Of a DNA stretch of 64,000 nucleotides, positions 46,444 through 63,903 are shown piece after piece. Every line of letters starts with the position of its first letter. The first letter of the stretch is position 1. The notes under the pieces are model-generated. The model was not told the origin of the DNA, did not search any database, and saw only the letters and a list, made by a program, of their open reading frames with translations. This stretch comes from Bacilli bacterium (GTDB taxonomy: Bacteria; Bacillota_I; Bacilli_A; RFN20; CAG-826): positions 676-64,675 of the forward strand of contig JBGULD010000060.1 in the NCBI GenBank assembly GCA_045114745.1, read 5' to 3'. The translations under genes and the position numbers were made by a program.

Positions 46444-48207
46444 ATGGAGAAGACAAAACCTAATACTTCCTATAGCTGGTTGGGCAATACCAAAAACATC
46501 TATGCTCAAGAAGATATTGTCTATTCACCTTTTTTATATGGCGCAAAAAGAATAGGTATTTTTGAAATTAAACCAAAAGAAGAAATCCGATTAATCTCTT
46601 ATCCATCACAGTACTTCTTCATCATTGTTAATAATGGGACTCTTAGATTTAAACAAAATGATTTAGAAATAGATATCAAAGAAGGAGAGGCATTATTTCG
46701 TGATGCTTCTATAAATTCTGTTTGGGTATCCGCAGATAATGAAAAAGTTGATTGCATGTATTTTTTATTAACAGGAAGCAACATTTCCTTTTTCTATTCT
46801 GAATACGAAAGACGTTCAAATTTGATAATCAAAATTACCGAATCCATTGATAAAATCATTAAACAAATAATAAATGAAGCTAAAGAGGAAACTCTCAATA
46901 AACGAGCATTTTCAATTCTTCTATATTCTTTGTTTTTAGAAATAATTAATCCTTTCGAAGTTCAAACCGTTAATATTACACAAAAAGCTATTGATTATAT
47001 TGAAAGAGAATATCAAAACGATAATTTATCAGTTCAAGATTTAGCGAATTATCTTCACATCTCTTATCACTACTTCTGTCATTTATTCAAACAAGAAAAC
47101 CATATATCACCACAAAAATATATTGCTAAATATCGTTTGAATAGGGCCTTACAATTATTAAAAACAAGCAATCTTGCAATTGAAGATATATTCATCAATG
47201 TCGGATTTAAGAACAAGCAATCTTTTATTAAGGAATGCAAAGAAGAAACCGGTTTGCTCCCATCTGATTATCGAAAGAAGAATAGGCCAATATCCTTAAA
47301 AGCCAAACAAACTAAAAAGATCACATTTACTAATGTCAGTAATATTGGCGATCCATGTATTATTGTGGAAGATAATAAATATTATATGTTCACCACCGCT
47401 AGGAATGGTGGCAATTTAAACTGTTATGTTAGTGATGATATGAAGTATTACAACTTTGTGGGTGAAACAATAGATAAGAATAAATCTTTTGGAAAGATAG
47501 ATTTCTGGGCTCCAGAAGTCATTAAATATAATAATGAATTTTACCTGTTTTATTCCGCAAGAGATAAAGAAGGAACTATTCATATTAATGTCGCCAAATC
47601 ATCAATTATTACTGGGCCATATATTGATTTAAATCAAAATAGACCTTTATTAAATTTAGATAAGGACACAACTGATGGATATCCATTTATCGATAAAGAT
47701 GGAAGAACGTATTTATTCTTCGTTTTAAATTGCACAACTAATGTTATTGAAAACAAACACATTTCCCAAATCTGCGTTGTAGAAATAGAAAAGGATTTCT
47801 CATCCACAAAAGGAGATATCCATATATTGCTCACACCATCGGAAAAATGGGAACTAAAATCTCCAAATAATTATTTTAGAAATGAATCGCCAGGAGTGGT
47901 TTATAAAGACGGAACCTATTTCCTTACCTATTCCGCGAACAACCATCGTGATATCAATTATTGCAGTGGTCTAGCAAAGAGTAAAAACATATTAGGACCA
48001 TATATTAAGAACAAGGAACCAATCGCAAAGAGAATTGAAGGAGTGATATCTTCTCCCGGACACATTTCATATTTTTATGATTTAAAAGGTAACTTTAAAT
48101 GTGCCTATCACATTCTTTCCAACATTAAACAAAACACGTCTGATAGGCGAGCTTGCATATCTTCTGTTTACATAGAAAATAATGAATTGATAATTGATTA
48201 TAAATAA
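46444..48207 (+). CDS. Three-domain regulator: cupin-like sensor + AraC-type HTH + C-terminal GH43 domain
   Basis: 587 aa, no signal peptide; HTH LSVQDLANYLHISYHYFCHLFKQENHISPQKYIAKYRLNRALQLL..GFKNKQSFIKECKEETGLLPSDYR; GH43 motifs NIGDPCIIVEDNKYYMF, FWAPEVIKYNNEFYLFYSA, TTDGYPFIDKDGRTYLFF, RNESPGVVYKDGTYFLTYSA. Confidence 0.85.
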   Translation: MEKTKPNTSYSWLGNTKNIYAQEDIVYSPFLYGAKRIGIFEIKPKEEIRLISYPSQYFFIIVNNGTLRFKQNDLEIDIKEGEALFRDASINSVWVSADNEKVDCMYFLLTGSNISFFYSEYERRSNLIIKITESIDKIIKQIINEAKEETLNKRAFSILLYSLFLEIINPFEVQTVNITQKAIDYIEREYQNDNLSVQDLANYLHISYHYFCHLFKQENHISPQKYIAKYRLNRALQLLKTSNLAIEDIFINVGFKNKQSFIKECKEETGLLPSDYRKKNRPISLKAKQTKKITFTNVSNIGDPCIIVEDNKYYMFTTARNGGNLNCYVSDDMKYYNFVGETIDKNKSFGKIDFWAPEVIKYNNEFYLFYSARDKEGTIHINVAKSSIITGPYIDLNQNRPLLNLDKDTTDGYPFIDKDGRTYLFFVLNCTTNVIENKHISQICVVEIEKDFSSTKGDIHILLTPSEKWELKSPNNYFRNESPGVVYKDGTYFLTYSANNHRDINYCSGLAKSKNILGPYIKNKEPIAKRIEGVISSPGHISYFYDLKGNFKCAYHILSNIKQNTSDRRACISSVYIENNELIIDYK

Positions 48208-52938: not shown

Positions 52939-54699
52939 ATGAGTGAAAACAAAATTTACGCATTATTTAGCAACATAAAATATATCTATCACCAAGAAGA
53001 TATTGTCTACTCTCCGTTTTTATATGACATTAGACGAATATTGATTGGGGAAATGAAACCAAATGAGGTTGTCTATTTTGAAAAGAATTTTTCTCAATAT
53101 ATTTTTGTAAATGTGAGAAAAGGCGCTATTGAGATAAAAGAAAAAAATTGCAAAACAATCGTTAGAGCAAATAATGGTTATTTTTATCAGCAATATGGTG
53201 ATACTGAATGGAGATGCATTTCTGAAGAAAATGCTGAATGTTGCTATGTAGCCATAAAGGGGAATAATGTTTCTCTTATTTATAGCGAATATAGAAAAAA
53301 AGAAAATGGAGTTATGGAAGTAAATTCCAGACTAGCCGAAACTCTAGAAAATATTTTATTAGAAACCAAACAAACACAAGTTAATAAACAACAAATATCT
53401 GTCTATATTTATTCTCTTCTATTACAGCTTGTGAAAACCGAAGGTTCAAAAAAAGAAAGAATCACCGCAAAGTCAATTGAATATATCGAAAAGAATTATC
53501 AAAACGACGAACTATCAATTGAAGATTTAGCAAGGAATTTAAATATCTCTTATTACTACTTCTGCCACTTATTTAAGCAAGAAAATCTCATATCACCACA
53601 AAAATACCTTTTGAAATATCGCTTAAACAAAGCATTAGAACTATTAAAAGAAAGTGATTTATCAATTGAAGATGTTTCAATTAATGCGGGTTTTAAAAAC
53701 AAAAAAGCTTTAGTGAAAGCGTGTAAGGAAGAGACGGGGTTATTGCCTTTTAAATATCGTAAAGTCAATAAAACAACACCGTTAAAAGCAAAACAAACCA
53801 AGAAGATATTATTCACAAATGTCAGCAATATAGGCGATCCATTTATTATTGTTGAAAATAAGAAATACTATATGTTCACCACGACTAGGAATGGTGCCAA
53901 CTTCAATTGCTATGTCAGTGAAGATATGAAATATTATGATTTTGTTGGCGAAGTACTAAATAAGAATAAAACTTTTGGAAAAACAGATTTCTGGGCCCCA
54001 GAAGTTATTAAATATAACGGGGAATTCTATTTGTTCTATTCCGCAAGAACTGAAAGTGGCATCTTCCACATCAATGTCGCCAAATCAAAAACTTTAGAAG
54101 AACCATTTGAGGATTGGTGTACTGATAGGCTACTACTCAATCTTGATAAGTCCACGATTGATGCACATCCTTTTATAGATGATGACGGTAGAATTTATCT
54201 ATTCTTTTCCATGGATTGTTCAACAAACATCATAGATGGAAAACATGTCTCTGAAATATATGTTGTTGAATTAAACAAAGAACTAAATGGGACAATTGGT
54301 GAAATTATAAAAGTGTCATCGCCGACGGAAGAATGGGAAAAACTATCATCTAATGACTACTACTGGAATGAAGGCCCAAGCATTGTTCATCTAAATGGAA
54401 TATATTATTTGACTTATTCAGCGAATTATTTCGGTGATAGAAATTATTGTGTTGGTGTGGCCACAAGCAAATCAGTCCTTGGACCATATGAAAAGAAAAA
54501 AGATGGACCGATACTTAAAAAGATTAATAATGTCATTTCAGGACCTGGTCATTGTTCATTTTTCTATGACAATAAGAATAATTTCAAATGCGTATATCAC
54601 ATTCATTCCAATCAAGTACAAAATAGCGCGGATCGTCGTGCATGTATATCGTCCGCATTTATTGATTCAAATAATGAATTAGTAATAGATTATAAATAA
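52939..54699 (+). CDS. Three-domain regulator: cupin-like sensor + AraC-type HTH + C-terminal GH43 domain (paralog of the 46444 gene)
   Basis: 586 aa; LSIEDLARNLNISYYYFCHLFKQENLISPQKYLLKYRLNKALELL; identical junction LKAKQTKKI.FTNVSNIGDP; GH43 motifs IGDPFIIVENKKYYMF, FWAPEVIKYNGEFYLFYSA, TIDAHPFIDDDGRIYLFF, WNEGPSIVHLNGIYYLTYSA. Confidence 0.85.
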   Translation: MSENKIYALFSNIKYIYHQEDIVYSPFLYDIRRILIGEMKPNEVVYFEKNFSQYIFVNVRKGAIEIKEKNCKTIVRANNGYFYQQYGDTEWRCISEENAECCYVAIKGNNVSLIYSEYRKKENGVMEVNSRLAETLENILLETKQTQVNKQQISVYIYSLLLQLVKTEGSKKERITAKSIEYIEKNYQNDELSIEDLARNLNISYYYFCHLFKQENLISPQKYLLKYRLNKALELLKESDLSIEDVSINAGFKNKKALVKACKEETGLLPFKYRKVNKTTPLKAKQTKKILFTNVSNIGDPFIIVENKKYYMFTTTRNGANFNCYVSEDMKYYDFVGEVLNKNKTFGKTDFWAPEVIKYNGEFYLFYSARTESGIFHINVAKSKTLEEPFEDWCTDRLLLNLDKSTIDAHPFIDDDGRIYLFFSMDCSTNIIDGKHVSEIYVVELNKELNGTIGEIIKVSSPTEEWEKLSSNDYYWNEGPSIVHLNGIYYLTYSANYFGDRNYCVGVATSKSVLGPYEKKKDGPILKKINNVISGPGHCSFFYDNKNNFKCVYHIHSNQVQNSADRRACISSAFIDSNNELVIDYK

Positions 54700-56531: not shown

Positions 56532-56560
56532 AAAAAACGAATCAGAGTGATTCGTTTTTT
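56532..56560. terminator. Bidirectional rho-independent terminator between the convergent GH2 and GLUG genes
   Basis: AAACGAATC-AGAGT-GATTCGTTT hairpin flanked by an A-run (left) and a T-run (right); the T-run abuts the stop of the minus-strand gene. Confidence 0.75.
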
Positions 56561-59791: not shown

Positions 59792-61798
59792 TTAGTTAAG
59801 TTCGTAATTTTTCACATTCACAGCAACATTGAATGTGTTTATTCCAAAATAGGCATTTCTTAAACCTATATTTGTAACGTTATTAATGGTTTGAATAACC
59901 ACTCCATTGAATAGGAATGAATATTCATCTTCCTGTCTATCAATGCCAAGGGAAATATAATTTCCATTTGTATAAACAGAGGAATCGGATCCGACATTAT
60001 AGCCAAGCGATACATAATCAGAAAATACACCGCCGGACACTTTACAATAGCCTAATGTAGTTCCGCTTAATGTATATCCACTTCCGTTTGAATCAACGTA
60101 ATAGAACACACCGTTATTTTCTTCATCAACAAGAATGATTCCAAATTTAGGATATAAATCATAGTTAATTACATTAAGTGCGGTAATAGAGGCGGTAAAA
60201 CGTAATGTATTATCTGATTTTTGGTGGGCATAAACTGTATTAAGTGCTTTGCCATTAGAGACAACAATGTATTCATCATCAACAGATAAATCCCACCCTT
60301 TGGTGACTTTTAAGTTAGAAGCGGAACCAAAGAAACTGCCATTCAAGACATTTCTATTAGTCATTAAATTTCTACCACTGATATAAGGATATGTTTCTGG
60401 ATCGTTATCTACGATAAATCCATCGCGATAATAATTCGTAGAACCATTTTGAATTGTGCCAAATGAAATGAATAAACATTCATCATCGGGGTTTGGAATA
60501 TTAGCGACAATACGATATCCGATGAGATTATCGTCATCGCCTTTAATTCCACTACTAGATTCTAAATAAGGTGTATCGTCAAATATCTTTTCAAAATCTT
60601 TTTTCTCAATAGAATAATCAAAACGCTCTGTCTTGCCATCAAGATAGATATTGAACTTTTTAAGGTTACTAGGGTTGATGAATTCTTCGGATTCAGCAAG
60701 GCAATATTTAATGCTGATGCCGTCTTTAACTAGAATGTTTTCATCAATGACATCAGCAATGACTTGATCATTATTAAATGAATAGTATGCTTTGGTGAGT
60801 TTGCCATCTCTAATTGAATCAACAACATAGTTGCTATCTAATGATGGCTTATTGATTTGTTCATTAGGTGAATAGTTTTCACTAGTTATTTCTTTATCTT
60901 GTAACGCCAAAAATGCTTTAGCGAATAAATTACCTAATTTGATTTCCCCTTTTGCGTCGTAATGAATACGATCCATGTTGTCTTGGTTTCTAGTAATGTT
61001 GGCACCTATTGTGTCGATATAGAAATTACGACTATCACTACTCATAACTGCTTTCTTCGCGGAGTTGATGTCACGGTAATTAAGCATGTAATAAGAAGAA
61101 ATGCCAGCATCGATAAAAGACATTCCATTCTTCGGTGCATATGAATAGTATCTAAGTTTGATATCATTCACAAAGTCCTCAAAATAACGTTTGTATTCTG
61201 GGTTTGCATTTTTGGCGTCTGTTTCACCTTGCACAAACATAAATGATGAAACATCAAAATCTACGCCACTAGCTTTTAACTTGTTTAGTTGATTATCAAA
61301 GAATTCAGTCATCTTGGTGAAATAAGTACCATGACTATTGTTCCACTGATAGACAAATGAGGATTCTCCACCACCAGCAAATTTGATGATGTAATAAGTG
61401 TCATTAGGTTTGACGTTTGATAAGTATTCAGCGATACCAACTTCTGGTCCTAAACAACCATATAGAATGCCTTCCTCAGCGGCCTTACCTTGACCAATTC
61501 TAGTATTCACAAAAGAAGTCTGTTCTTTATGAATTAAGCCGGAATTTAGCATGTTTTTGAAAGAAATTTTGACATTTTCGTATCCTTTTTTGTACTCATT
61601 AAACTTCTCATCACTGACGCCATCTAACTCTTCAAGATGATAGGAATAAGAATAGCCCAAACAGTTCTCTCCGCCCGCAAGCAAAATGACATGGCTAATC
61701 TTATCTTCTTGTTTTTCATCAACAATACTATTAGCCGATGGATTTTTGCTGCAACCCACTAGTAGGAGTGGTATGAAAAGAAGGGCAAACTTTTTCAT
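59792..61798 (-). CDS. SASA-like (sialate-O-acetylesterase-type, DUF303) carbohydrate esterase lipoprotein + YPKxGI jelly-roll
   Basis: Lipobox LVGC; HVILLAGGENCLGYS, YIIKFAGGGESSF, FMFVQGETDA, RIHYDAKGEIKLG resemble SASA-family blocks; C-terminal LYPKFGIILVDEENNGVFYYVDS. Confidence 0.6.
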   Translation of the reverse strand: MKKFALLFIPLLLVGCSKNPSANSIVDEKQEDKISHVILLAGGENCLGYSYSYHLEELDGVSDEKFNEYKKGYENVKISFKNMLNSGLIHKEQTSFVNTRIGQGKAAEEGILYGCLGPEVGIAEYLSNVKPNDTYYIIKFAGGGESSFVYQWNNSHGTYFTKMTEFFDNQLNKLKASGVDFDVSSFMFVQGETDAKNANPEYKRYFEDFVNDIKLRYYSYAPKNGMSFIDAGISSYYMLNYRDINSAKKAVMSSDSRNFYIDTIGANITRNQDNMDRIHYDAKGEIKLGNLFAKAFLALQDKEITSENYSPNEQINKPSLDSNYVVDSIRDGKLTKAYYSFNNDQVIADVIDENILVKDGISIKYCLAESEEFINPSNLKKFNIYLDGKTERFDYSIEKKDFEKIFDDTPYLESSSGIKGDDDNLIGYRIVANIPNPDDECLFISFGTIQNGSTNYYRDGFIVDNDPETYPYISGRNLMTNRNVLNGSFFGSASNLKVTKGWDLSVDDEYIVVSNGKALNTVYAHQKSDNTLRFTASITALNVINYDLYPKFGIILVDEENNGVFYYVDSNGSGYTLSGTTLGYCKVSGGVFSDYVSLGYNVGSDSSVYTNGNYISLGIDRQEDEYSFLFNGVVIQTINNVTNIGLRNAYFGINTFNVAVNVKNYELN

Positions 61799-62964
61799 TA
61801 ATGATTACCTGATAACTCCGGTGATTCTAAAATCGCAATCATGGTTTGTAGATCGATTTGAATATTTGTTTCACTATTTGTGTATTCATCAACACAGAAA
61901 GCGATATAACTTCCAAACATTGGACACATCAATCTTGATAATGTGGATTGTCCATGTACGGAGAATTTAATGCCTAATTCATTTTCTAGAATCATACATG
62001 ATTTAAGATGTTCAATGACCGTTTCTTTAGAAGAACCAGACAAAACTAGTTTTGCCACATCAGCGCCTACGGATTCGATGAACTTACCAGCCGCTACTGT
62101 TTGTTCAGCAGTCATTTCAACACCCACGTGTGCGGAATATAAAACTTCAGCACCCATATCATGGATTTCGTCAATAAAGGCTTTTTGTTGTGCGATAACA
62201 GTTTTATCCAAAGATAATTCCTTCGCATTTGCGTCAACAAATGACACATCAACACCTTCACTCACATATGTTGGTTTGAGTGATTTGTTCTGTGTTGGGA
62301 TATTACCACCGTCTGGGTTGAATAAATATCCAGGCATATCAACAGCACATGCACCTGCTTGTACGGATAACTTCAACAAGCTAGCGAAGTTTTCCCAACT
62401 TTGGTTAACAGTATTACCTGCAAAGGTGCCATTATATGCAATAGCCATCACAGGAAGATTGGTACAATACATAATTCTTTCTAAATCAGCTAGGTTCCAG
62501 TATTCCTGATTCAAAGCGGTGATATATATCATGATGCCTTTTGCACCATGAGCTTCTGATTTTCTAATTTTAATAATCGCATCGTTCGGGTTATTTTCTA
62601 AAATCATGGAAACAGGCATGACTTTATGGTCGGTGAAAACAGGTTTTTCTCTATCTAAATCAATATCAACATTCGTATCAAATGTCTCTTCCACAATATC
62701 GTATCCAAGATGCCCACAGACATCGCAAATATGATAAACAATACCATCATCACCACCGATGGTAATATCTTTATAATGGTGATCAGATTTAGGAACTATA
62801 TTGTCCCTATACACATAGCCATCATTTCTCTTGTGCTCGGTATATCCTTCGCTGATGCATGTCGGTTCAACAACCTTGACCTCAATATCATAAGGAGCCT
62901 TTTTAGCGCACGAAAAAAGTGAAATGGAAGCTATGAGTGTTAAAAAAAGATGTTTCTTACTCAT
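61798..62964 (-). CDS. Lipoprotein with N-terminal Cys/His modules and a type I 3-dehydroquinase-like (AroD-fold) domain
   Basis: Lipobox LFSC; VVEPTCISEGYTEH and HHYKDITIGGDDGIVYHICDVCGH; C-terminal half AEVLYSAHVGVEMTAEQ..SVGADVAKLVLSGSSKETVIEHL..GIKFSVHGQSTLSRLMCPMFGSYIAFC parallels AroD ..SNHDF..GADIPKIAVM..ISRL..FGSAATF. Confidence 0.55.
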   Translation of the reverse strand: MSKKHLFLTLIASISLFSCAKKAPYDIEVKVVEPTCISEGYTEHKRNDGYVYRDNIVPKSDHHYKDITIGGDDGIVYHICDVCGHLGYDIVEETFDTNVDIDLDREKPVFTDHKVMPVSMILENNPNDAIIKIRKSEAHGAKGIMIYITALNQEYWNLADLERIMYCTNLPVMAIAYNGTFAGNTVNQSWENFASLLKLSVQAGACAVDMPGYLFNPDGGNIPTQNKSLKPTYVSEGVDVSFVDANAKELSLDKTVIAQQKAFIDEIHDMGAEVLYSAHVGVEMTAEQTVAAGKFIESVGADVAKLVLSGSSKETVIEHLKSCMILENELGIKFSVHGQSTLSRLMCPMFGSYIAFCVDEYTNSETNIQIDLQTMIAILESPELSGNH

Positions 62965-63054: not shown

Positions 63055-63819
63055 CTATATGACACTGTTACTTTTGCGATAAGAAAGCGGTGTTACGCCA
63101 TCATGTTTCTTCACGAAAGCGCGGAAAAAAGTGATTTGATTAGAGAAACCGCAGTCATTAGAAATTTCATATATAGGTTTAGCGCTAGATATGAGAAGTT
63201 GTTCTGCTTTACGGAATCTCAAATTCATAATGTATTCTTTTATACCAACATTTAGGTATTTGGCGAATAGTTTTTGAAGATAAATAATCGACGCTGAACA
63301 ATGCTTGGCTATCTCTTCATTACTAATGCCGACATCTGAATAATGATTATTTATATAATCAATAGCCTCAGAAAGGATGAGTGGAAAGTGTGTTTTTTCG
63401 CCATTTGTCATCTTCAGAATTAAATCGAGGATTAATCTAGAAAGAATGACTTTATAATTCGTATCCGCTTCATAATCGTGAGCACGGAAATTATTTATAT
63501 ATTCAACAATAGGCTTTACATCTACTTCAAACGACTCAAAAGTGGGGGAATAGGCTGTGCATTTAAAGTTAATAACATACGAGATATCTTCTTTTACACA
63601 ATCAAGACAATATGAAATATTCGCTGGAACAAATAATACATGATCCTTATCGCAGCGGAACACTTCCCCTTTGTGTTTATAATATATTTCTCCAGATGTG
63701 CAAACTAGTATTCCAGAATATTTTCGATCCACTATTTCGCGGTGAACACCAAGCGGAGAATAGACTTGAAATATGCCACCAATTTCAGTCAAATAGAAGT
63801 TTTTAAAAATTTCATTCAT
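63055..63819 (-). CDS. AraC family transcriptional regulator
   Basis: 254 aa; cupin-like N-terminus, C-terminal HTH ISNEEIAKHCSASIIYLQKLFAKYLNVGIKEYIMNLRFRKAEQLL..CGFSNQITFFRAFVKKHDGVTPLSYR. Confidence 0.9.
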   Translation of the reverse strand: MNEIFKNFYLTEIGGIFQVYSPLGVHREIVDRKYSGILVCTSGEIYYKHKGEVFRCDKDHVLFVPANISYCLDCVKEDISYVINFKCTAYSPTFESFEVDVKPIVEYINNFRAHDYEADTNYKVILSRLILDLILKMTNGEKTHFPLILSEAIDYINNHYSDVGISNEEIAKHCSASIIYLQKLFAKYLNVGIKEYIMNLRFRKAEQLLISSAKPIYEISNDCGFSNQITFFRAFVKKHDGVTPLSYRKSNSVI

Positions 63820-63827
63820 GTTAACAT

Positions 63828-63833
63828 TTTATA
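63828..63833 (-). promoter_or_regulatory. -10-like box TATAAA 8 nt upstream of the AraC start; no SD
   Basis: Minus strand AGTATTATATAAAATGTTAAC-ATG. Confidence 0.35.
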
Positions 63834-63875
63834 TAATACTTTTTGTCTATTCAACAAACCTCTTTAAAGAGCAAG

Positions 63876-63903
63876 AAAAAAACCCGCTTCAACAACGAGC
63901 GGG
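63876..63903 (-). terminator. Rho-independent terminator downstream of the partial right-edge gene
   Basis: CCCGCT (63883-63888) / AGCGGG (63898-63903) hairpin followed on the minus strand by TTTTTTT (63876-63882). Confidence 0.75.

Follow-up and report, generated by a model that had tools for sequence, protein, structure and literature searches.

Catalysis through a covalent Schiff base is characteristic of central metabolism in the cytoplasm, and NanA, the KDPG aldolase Eda and the 5-keto-4-deoxyglucarate dehydratase KdgD are all cytoplasmic class I Schiff-base triosephosphate isomerase (TIM) barrels with their catalytic lysine on strand b6. At the cell surface, multidomain sialidases with an SGNH/SASA sialate O-acetylesterase module occur, as do stand-alone esterases of the NanS type; to our knowledge, no described sialidase carries a dehydroquinase-like barrel, and Schiff-base catalysis has not been described among secreted glycan-degrading enzymes. 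In the type I dehydroquinase AroD, roles in the Schiff-base mechanism are assigned to Lys170 and His143 (PMC13247285, PMC4114755), and Arg213 forms a salt bridge to the substrate carboxylate (PMC13247285). This paper describes a gene from an uncultured Bacilli bacterium of the ruminant gut (NCBI GenBank assembly GCA_045114745.1, contig JBGULD010000060.1) which encodes a predicted surface lipoprotein of 388 residues with an AroD-like barrel, and the cassette to which that gene belongs (Table 1). The stretch of DNA analysed, 64,000 nucleotides in length, is referred to as the window, and the uncurated family of dehydroquinase-like barrels to which the protein belongs is here named DHQL. The protein is quite likely an exported catalytic enzyme of glycan processing and not an AroD. 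The full reading proposed here, to which a probability of roughly 0.55 is given, is that of a surface Schiff-base lyase or dehydratase whose substrate would be a carboxylated keto-sugar derived from an O-acetylated acidic glycan.

A (beta/alpha)8 barrel makes up the C-terminal ~290 residues, and among solved folds it is nearest to that of AroD. The Pfam family DHquinase_I (PF01487) is matched with 31.7 bits (gathering score 22.2, E 2.2e-7) over profile positions 68–229 only, and it was the sole family with a meaningful score in a Pfam scan of the protein at E <= 1, which returned neither DHDPS (PF00701) nor Aldolase (PF01081). A phmmer search of the Protein Data Bank (PDB) with the protein retrieved type I dehydroquinases exclusively. 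An AlphaFold2 model built from 29 sequences (mean predicted local distance difference test score 88.9) shows a helical insertion of ~55 residues after strand b4, and in a Foldseek comparison of this model with the PDB ranks 1–49 were all type I dehydroquinases (best E 3.7e-13; template modelling score 0.75–0.79 on the target), the first fold of another kind, TrpC, standing at rank 50. Alignment of 11 orthologous barrels with nine canonical Clostridia AroDs by hhalign gave a probability of 93.9% (E 1.5e-7, 219 columns). No other TIM barrel comes as close to this one as AroD does, and the likeness is well above chance. The AroD-like fold proposed in a first-pass annotation of this DNA is thereby confirmed, and so are the five block matches listed there, each of which was recovered by HMMER and/or hhalign: PVSMIL is strand b1, PVMAIAYNG corresponds to PLLFTFRS (b3), SAHVG to SNHDF (His279 with His143), VAKLV to IPKIA (Lys305 with Lys170) and LSRLM..FGSY to ISRLA..FGSA (Arg344 with Arg213).

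Most of the catalytic residues of AroD have counterparts in this barrel (AroD residues are given in AroD numbering and counterparts in that of the 388-residue protein). Lys170, the Schiff-base lysine on b6, aligns with Lys305 in phmmer, hmmsearch and hhalign, and the same three methods align Arg213 with Arg344, located after b7. Ser141 and His143 (b5) correspond to Ser277 and His279, Gln236 of the b8-a8 lid loop to Gln369 in hhalign (with a two-residue shift in HMMER), and Asp114 (b4) to Asp209 in the HMMER alignment only, the strand being split by hhalign. His279, Lys305, Arg344, Asp209, Ser277, Tyr177 and Gln369 are invariant in 29 orthologues with identities down to 44%. Across the DHQL family the counterparts of Lys305 and His279 are kept in all of the ~145 representatives that cover those positions, and Tyr177, Asp209, Ser277, His279, Asp302, Lys305 and Arg344 are kept in 130–145 of 149 representatives. 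Retention of the Schiff-base lysine and the catalytic histidine, both of which align by three methods, had been claimed on first reading and is borne out. As judged from these alignments, the residue set of a Schiff-base dehydratase is retained together with its carboxylate clamp, and its invariance across orthologues and family argues for catalysis and not for a relic.

The remainder of the pocket is different. The EWR motif of AroD (Glu46/Arg48) is replaced, strand b2 reading I-M145-I-Y147, where the equivalence with Met145/Tyr147 is one of strand position in the AlphaFold2 model and not of confident alignment; Arg82 of the TxR motif is replaced by Tyr177, and Glu86, a member of the proposed triad, by a variable non-acidic position (F/A in NGTFAG). 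Both motifs are invariant in the nine canonical Clostridia AroDs. The protein scores 27 bits with the aroD equivalog model TIGR01093, for which the cut-off is 139.3. The region of the pocket which in AroD binds the hydroxyls of dehydroquinate is thus predicted to have been rebuilt, and the earlier suggestion of a repurposed enzyme agrees with the loss of Glu46, Arg48 and Arg82 and with the low TIGR01093 score. A genuine biosynthetic or scavenging 3-dehydroquinate dehydratase would account for the PF01487 score above the gathering threshold and for the catalytic lysine and histidine; this identity is hardly credible and was rejected on the basis of the TIGR01093 score, the absent EWR and TxR motifs, the lipoprotein signal, the want of shikimate-pathway genes (neither chorismate synthase nor EPSP synthase) in the 77% complete genome, and a separate phylogenetic position on a long branch from AroD with 100% support.

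The genome that contains the window (G000, in which the window is C60:676-64675) comprises 0.99 Mb in 63 contigs and is 77% complete, and all absences from it are provisional. Within these limits, a PF01487 search found no full-length aroD, the only matches being the barrel gene, a 737-residue paralogue on contig C54 and a chance match on C49, and there was no match to chorismate synthase (PF01264), to the EPSP synthase/MurA family (PF00275) or to the penicillin-binding protein (PBP) transpeptidase (PF00905). The C49 match is IspG, a TIM barrel retrieved by chance at E 0.032. The first-pass annotation had advised a check for a separate canonical aroD, and this is its outcome. Likewise, no type I aroD above the cut-off was present in any of 10 genomes carrying the barrel family; in one relative a type II dehydroquinase and a shikimate kinase are encoded a few kb from the cassette. 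On these grounds the organism is probably an aromatic amino-acid auxotroph and probably wall-less, and since neither MurA-family nor PBP matches were found its lipoproteins would be directly surface-exposed.

Export of the protein is predicted from a conserved signal. The open reading frame has an ATG start preceded by a GAGG ribosome-binding site, and the N-terminus, MSKKHLFLTLIASISLFSC, consists of an n-region with K3K4, a hydrophobic core and the lipobox L16-F17-S18-C19, which agrees with the pattern [LVI..][ASTVIF..][GAS]C of Lgt/Lsp substrates. The lipobox cysteine is present in every one of the 29 homologues (44–80% identity), in which position -1 is always G, S or A, so that the surface lipoprotein predicted at first sight is retained as such. 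The signal is followed by a beta-rich module in which C36, H62, C80 and C83 are the only invariant residues among the 29 homologues and which matched no Pfam family. Two Cys/His modules had been described in this region; the Cys/His character stands, and the number does not, as these four residues fit one site better, likely of the zinc type. The same module (PTCxxEGYxE...H...CxxCG) stands alone at the N-terminus of ~30 otherwise unrelated Firmicute proteins from Clostridia and Acholeplasmatales.

The extent of the DHQL family was determined by an exhaustive profile search of 1.84 billion representatives (50%-identity clusters) at E <= 1e-3, which yielded 390 clusters, 64 of them below 1e-30. 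The family signature, which the window protein carries in full, comprises Tyr (b3), Asp (b4), Ser-x-His (b5), Asp-x-x-Lys (b6) and Arg (after b7). All members tested pass PF01487 and all reach at most 50 bits with TIGR01093. Five architectures are found: (a) lipoproteins of 380–410 residues, such as the window protein; (b) secreted proteins of 600–1100 residues with an N-terminal domain, the barrel and ConA-like domains, one of them (P0044) with a dockerin; (c) surface giants of 2000–4800 residues; (d) cytoplasmic stand-alone barrels of 270–290 residues with the insertion; and (e) cytoplasmic barrels of ~260 residues without it. Most members are cytoplasmic and encoded in oxidoreductase-rich operons. 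In a maximum-likelihood tree DHQL forms one clade (support 100) on a long branch from canonical AroD, the secreted forms arose at least twice within the cytoplasmic insertion-bearing forms, and the window protein is one of five lipoproteins that make up a clade sister to type (b). Members occur in 55 of 399 sampled Clostridia genomes (~14%). In the order to which the organism itself belongs, DHQL or the cassette is present in only 2 of 61 genomes, which suggests that it was acquired by this organism. The literature searched contained no account of PF01487 members that are exported or that are not AroD.

The genes that accompany DHQL bear on what the exported forms may act upon. In the window the gene had been placed at the head of an operon with a SASA-like and two GLUG partners; the partners are confirmed and recur in the related loci, and the head position is not, an AraC gene on the same strand preceding the DHQL gene by 90 nt. 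The DHQL stop codon overlaps the start of the SASA-like gene (TAATG), an overlap found at this junction in 13 of 15 loci, and the DHQL gene is predicted from this to be translationally coupled to the SASA-like/lectin gene; GLUG gene B abuts gene A with no gap. The SASA-like protein consists of an SGNH/SASA-type domain followed by two beta-sandwich domains (C-terminal 340 residues), the last of them ConA/CBM66/galectin-like; folds found for this C-terminal half were generic sandwiches of that kind only, without a clue to the ligand. GLUG protein A carries a signal anchor at its N-terminus and, at its C-terminus, a transmembrane segment with an RKRK tail. PDB sequence searches gave nothing useful for the SASA-like protein or for GLUG protein B.

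Among 17 related loci, from rumen Erysipelotrichaceae metagenome-assembled genomes, Christensenellaceae, other Clostridia and Firmicutes CAG:449, an AraC gene, a GLUG-type protein (530–1360 residues), DHQL and a SASA-like protein recur wherever the contig allows; an AraC gene was present beside the cassette, mostly in divergent orientation, at every locus where the contig extended far enough. Housekeeping genes unrelated to it surround the cassette in two loci, as would be expected of a horizontally mobile, AraC-controlled surface module. The genome contains a second cassette (C54:4277-16733) with a divergent AraC gene, three GLUG-type proteins (464, 517 and 935 residues), a 649-residue GDSL esterase, a 538-residue Listeria-Bacteroides-repeat lipoprotein and the 737-residue DHQL lipoprotein, which combines an N-terminal domain, the barrel and a ConA-like domain; in the relative L005 cassettes of the C54 type and the window type are adjacent. 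A BNR_2 gene directly follows the cassette in L117 and L118 and lies near it in L007. In the Clostridia relative L120 (1-5955) genes for a GH127 + Laminin_G_3 protein and for a glycyl-radical enzyme with its activase precede the cassette.

A complex is suggested by the coupling of the DHQL gene to the SASA-like gene, and together with the doubtful nucleophile of that partner (see below) this coupling could point to a non-catalytic module, either a pseudoenzyme that binds an acidic sugar or a membrane scaffold for the SASA-like and GLUG proteins. This is quite improbable, as Lys, His, Ser, Asp and Arg are invariant in orthologues down to 44% identity and kept family-wide, and binding alone would not require such a set.

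Domain fusions place the barrel among glycan-directed modules. P0066 (4795 residues) contains Listeria-Bacteroides repeats, two GDSL esterase domains, a separate set of repeats with homology to the C-terminal sandwich of the window SASA-like protein, a DHQL barrel and a GH88/105 domain, as well as a GLUG beta-helix to which GLUG proteins A and B of the window are both homologous; P0097 joins BNR_2, DHQL and SASA. In 25 long proteins with a barrel of the fusion clade, one of which is named exo-alpha-sialidase by NCBI, a BNR_2 propeller is present in 24, a CBM32/NedA-like domain in 23, GDSL in 15, and GH88 and GLUG in one each. DHQL fusion surface proteins (P0066, P0080, P0084, P0087, P0088, P0097 and P0188-P0208), 1700–4800 residues in length, come from gut Oscillospiraceae and other Clostridia. 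The recurring companions would thus be O-acyl esterases together with exo-acting enzymes of types that set carboxylated 2-keto-3-deoxy sugars free, namely sialic or other ulosonic acids, or the 4-deoxy-5-keto-uronate that arises from unsaturated uronates. The keto-sugar or quinate-like substrate named in the first-pass annotation fares unevenly: the keto-sugar gains support from the esterase, propeller and GH88/105 fusions, while still being inferred, and a quinate-like compound suits the cytoplasmic relatives better.

Elsewhere in the same genome (G000:C24:23301-27237), a 770-residue GDSL esterase lipoprotein is encoded directly upstream of a secreted 540-residue GH88/105 homologue; its C-terminal sandwich resembles that of the SASA-like protein, and the pair suggests that unsaturated uronates are processed by the organism, in which, as in the cassettes, no recognised polysaccharide lyase was noticed. 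The window cassette lies at the edge of a larger glycan-utilisation island. Two AraC regulators fused to GH43 domains are encoded on the plus strand of the window (46444-48207 and 52939-54699), beside DUF4886/SGNH-like, Big_2 and GH2 genes.

The chemistry of the family is most readily approached through its cytoplasmic members, whose genomic neighbours comprise an AraC regulator, a GFO/IDH/MocA dehydrogenase, a short-chain dehydrogenase/reductase (SDR) and a PIG3-type enone reductase (TIGR02824 above the cut-off), sometimes also a GDSL esterase, an EamA transporter and GH106-like and GH94-like genes. Such operons with a divergent AraC gene were seen at L082, L083 and L086-L091 (Clostridia G229, G304, G118, G151, G460, G168 and G258), G229 having two of them 7 kb apart. 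They look like an undescribed oxidise-dehydrate-reduce pathway, in which a substrate would be oxidised and dehydrated, the resulting enone reduced and then the ketone reduced; with such neighbours, the chemistry of the family is probably, in the simplest case, a beta-elimination next to a carbonyl, as in AroD. Ring deoxygenation would suit these operons, and for the exported form one may likewise envisage a small plant cyclitol acid as substrate, e.g., a keto-acid derived from quinate or shikimate that the esterase-like partner would liberate from esters of the chlorogenate type, in keeping with the dehydroquinase descent, the conserved clamp Arg344 and a plant-biomass habitat, the unit having GH43 and GH2 genes as neighbours. 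Such a role is improbable: quinate has no carbonyl and there is no extracellular oxidoreductase, the hydroxyl ligands Arg48, Arg82 and Glu46 are all replaced, and the fusions are directed at glycans (BNR_2, CBM32, GH88, lectin-like sandwiches and Listeria-Bacteroides repeats).

In the surface Schiff-base reading, partner proteins would free a sugar at the cell surface from an O-acetylated acidic glycan. Lys305 would form an iminium with the carbonyl of this carboxylated sugar, and Arg344 would hold the carboxylate. His279, with Ser277 and Asp209 to orient it, would take the alpha-proton, and the enamine would then expel a beta-substituent (water or an O-linked group) or undergo retro-aldol cleavage. 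Tyr147 and Tyr177, in place of the arginines that bind the dehydroquinate hydroxyls, would alter the specificity. Outside the cell no NAD-dependent partner is at hand, and therefore the carbonyl must pre-exist in the substrate; taken with the fusions, this points to free 2-keto-3-deoxy acid sugars released in situ, most probably sialic or another ulosonic acid, or a 4-deoxy-5-keto-uronate released by GH88/105. The cassette as a whole would be a self-contained, AraC-controlled surface module for harvesting an acidic glycan decoration.

Several observations weigh against this proposal. An extracellular enzyme acting on free keto-acid monomers would be unusual, and in ulosonic acids held in glycosidic linkage the carbonyl is not free. 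Alignment is weak over the first third of the barrel, with the PF01487 match beginning only at profile position 68, and the HMMER and hhalign alignments differ at b2 and b4. Met145/Tyr147 are found only in the clade of the window protein, other insertion-bearing members having Asp/His, and its substrate may therefore differ from theirs. The nucleophile block I of the SASA-like protein, LLAGGENCLGYSYSY, is atypical, with G-Y-S50-Y in place of G-Q-S-N; the L008 orthologue has Ala for S50, D276 and H279 of the SASA-like protein are invariant, and its esterase activity is not certain. The BNR_2 propellers of the fusions read GCP where sialidases have the first arginine of the RIP motif, and can be called sialidase-like at most. 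Finally, NanA, NanE, NanT, NanQ and a BNR_2 propeller were all missing from the 77% complete genome, in which a weak ROK match was the only hit, so that the sialic-acid version rests on relatives and fusions; the idea that the organism itself feeds on sialic acid was dropped as unsupported.

The difficulty of naming an extracellular substrate with a free carbonyl also favours the main alternative, another use of the same barrel and residues, in which no Schiff base is formed and a general acid/base lyase, hydrolase or esterase acts directly on the polymer. One version is a uronate polysaccharide lyase, with Arg344 neutralising the carboxylate, His279, Lys305 or Tyr177 serving as base and acid, and GH88/105 removing the unsaturated ends. 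A barrel fused to GH88 and clustered with esterases would complete the classic triad of esterase, lyase and GH88/105, in cassettes where no recognised polysaccharide lyase was seen, and Tyr takes the place of Arg at two positions of the active site. This alternative is unlikely, since Lys/His/Ser/Asp/Arg is the exact Schiff-base set of AroD and is common to cytoplasmic relatives in small-molecule redox operons, the GLUG beta-helix partner is a more conventional candidate for a lyase or glycosidase, and we know of no polysaccharide lyase on a dehydroquinase-like fold.

Table 1. Features of the DHQL cassette and of the DHQL lipoprotein gene in the window (window coordinates; residues numbered along the 388-residue protein).
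Feature	Position	Strand	Basis or remark
Terminator-like hairpin closing the preceding unit	63882-63900		before the promoter-like site
Promoter-like site, TTGAAT-17-TAAAAT	63826..63854	-	consensus scan only; just upstream of the AraC gene
AraC/XylS-type regulator, 254 residues, first gene of the unit	63055..63819	-	Pfam HTH_18, E 9.5e-16
DHQL lipoprotein gene, 388 residues	61798..62964	-	
Predicted lipoprotein signal peptide, residues 1-19	62908..62964	-	lipobox LFSC; Cys19 invariant in 29/29
N-terminal beta-rich Cys/His module, residues ~25-95	62680..62892	-	conservation and structure model
Type I dehydroquinase-like (beta/alpha)8 barrel, residues 100-388	61801..62667	-	Pfam, phmmer, AlphaFold2 model, Foldseek, hhalign
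Codon of E123	62596-62598	-	other key residue
Codon of M145	62530-62532	-	replaced residue
Codon of Y147	62524-62526	-	replaced residue
Codon of Y177	62434-62436	-	replaced residue
Codon of D209	62338-62340	-	kept residue
Codon of S277	62134-62136	-	kept residue
Codon of H279	62128-62130	-	kept residue
Codon of K305	62050-62052	-	kept residue
Codon of H337	61954-61956	-	other key residue
Codon of R344	61933-61935	-	kept residue
Codon of Q369	61858-61860	-	kept residue
SASA-like lipoprotein, 668 residues	59792..61798	-	
GLUG-type beta-helix protein A, 540 residues	58150..59772	-	
GLUG-repeat beta-helix lipoprotein B, 529 residues	56560..58149	-	Pfam Glug, E 5.3e-11, 6 repeats
Terminator-like hairpin, 13-bp stem then T run	56532..56560	-	end of the last GLUG gene

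In DHQL a biosynthetic enzyme fold has been recruited to the cell exterior at least twice, and exported barrels of the family form part of very large sialidase-like and esterase proteins in bacteria of the gut and rumen. The association with the cassette points to an undescribed step in the breakdown of acetylated acidic sugar polymers. If the exported forms do process acidic keto-sugars at the cell surface, they would supply a type of reaction that models of how mucin, pectin or capsules are degraded in the gut now lack, would contribute a new family to catalogues of carbohydrate-active enzymes, and would explain the automated assignment of "dehydroquinase" domains to surface proteins of organisms without a shikimate pathway. 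A bolder suggestion, tentative and rather doubtful, is that DHQL founds a new class of carbohydrate-active enzymes, that of extracellular, cofactor-free Schiff-base lyases with a mechanism of the class I aldolase/dehydroquinase type, which on the cell surface, beside esterases and exo-glycosidases (sialidase-like propellers, GH88/105 and GLUG beta-helices), would cleave, dehydrate or eliminate a substituent from released 2-keto-3-deoxy acid sugars; gut bacteria with small genomes would in that event obtain pyruvate or a transportable product and need no pathway dedicated to uptake and catabolism.

Compared with described systems, the best structural match is AroD (EC 4.2.1.10; Salmonella 3M7W and 1QFE, Clostridioides difficile 3JS3), which has the same barrel and shares with the window protein the lysine on b6, the histidine and serine on b5, the arginine after b7, the glutamine of the b8-a8 loop and probably the aspartate on b4. 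The window protein differs from it in being a predicted exported lipoprotein with an additional N-terminal Cys/His module and a ~55-residue insertion after b4, in its ~14% sequence identity, in having no counterpart of Glu86 and in its glycan-locus context. The cytoplasmic DHQL proteins of Clostridia (255–290 residues) belong to the same family (domain-profile E values from 1e-60 to 1e-17), share the conserved Y/D/S/H/K/R set and have an adjoining AraC regulator; in contrast to the window protein they lack a signal peptide, have redox partners and not surface proteins, and carry D/H and not M/Y on b2. The likeness of NanA, Eda and KdgD to DHQL would be mechanistic, lying in the proposed substrate class (carboxylated keto-deoxy sugars) and in iminium-driven cleavage of C-C or C-O bonds, no Pfam match to these enzymes being obtained at E <= 1. 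Surface sialidases and the DHQL fusions both unite a BNR propeller, CBM32 and an esterase in one surface protein of gut Firmicutes, and they differ in that the fusion propellers lack the first RIP arginine and the window cassette has GLUG proteins in place of a propeller.

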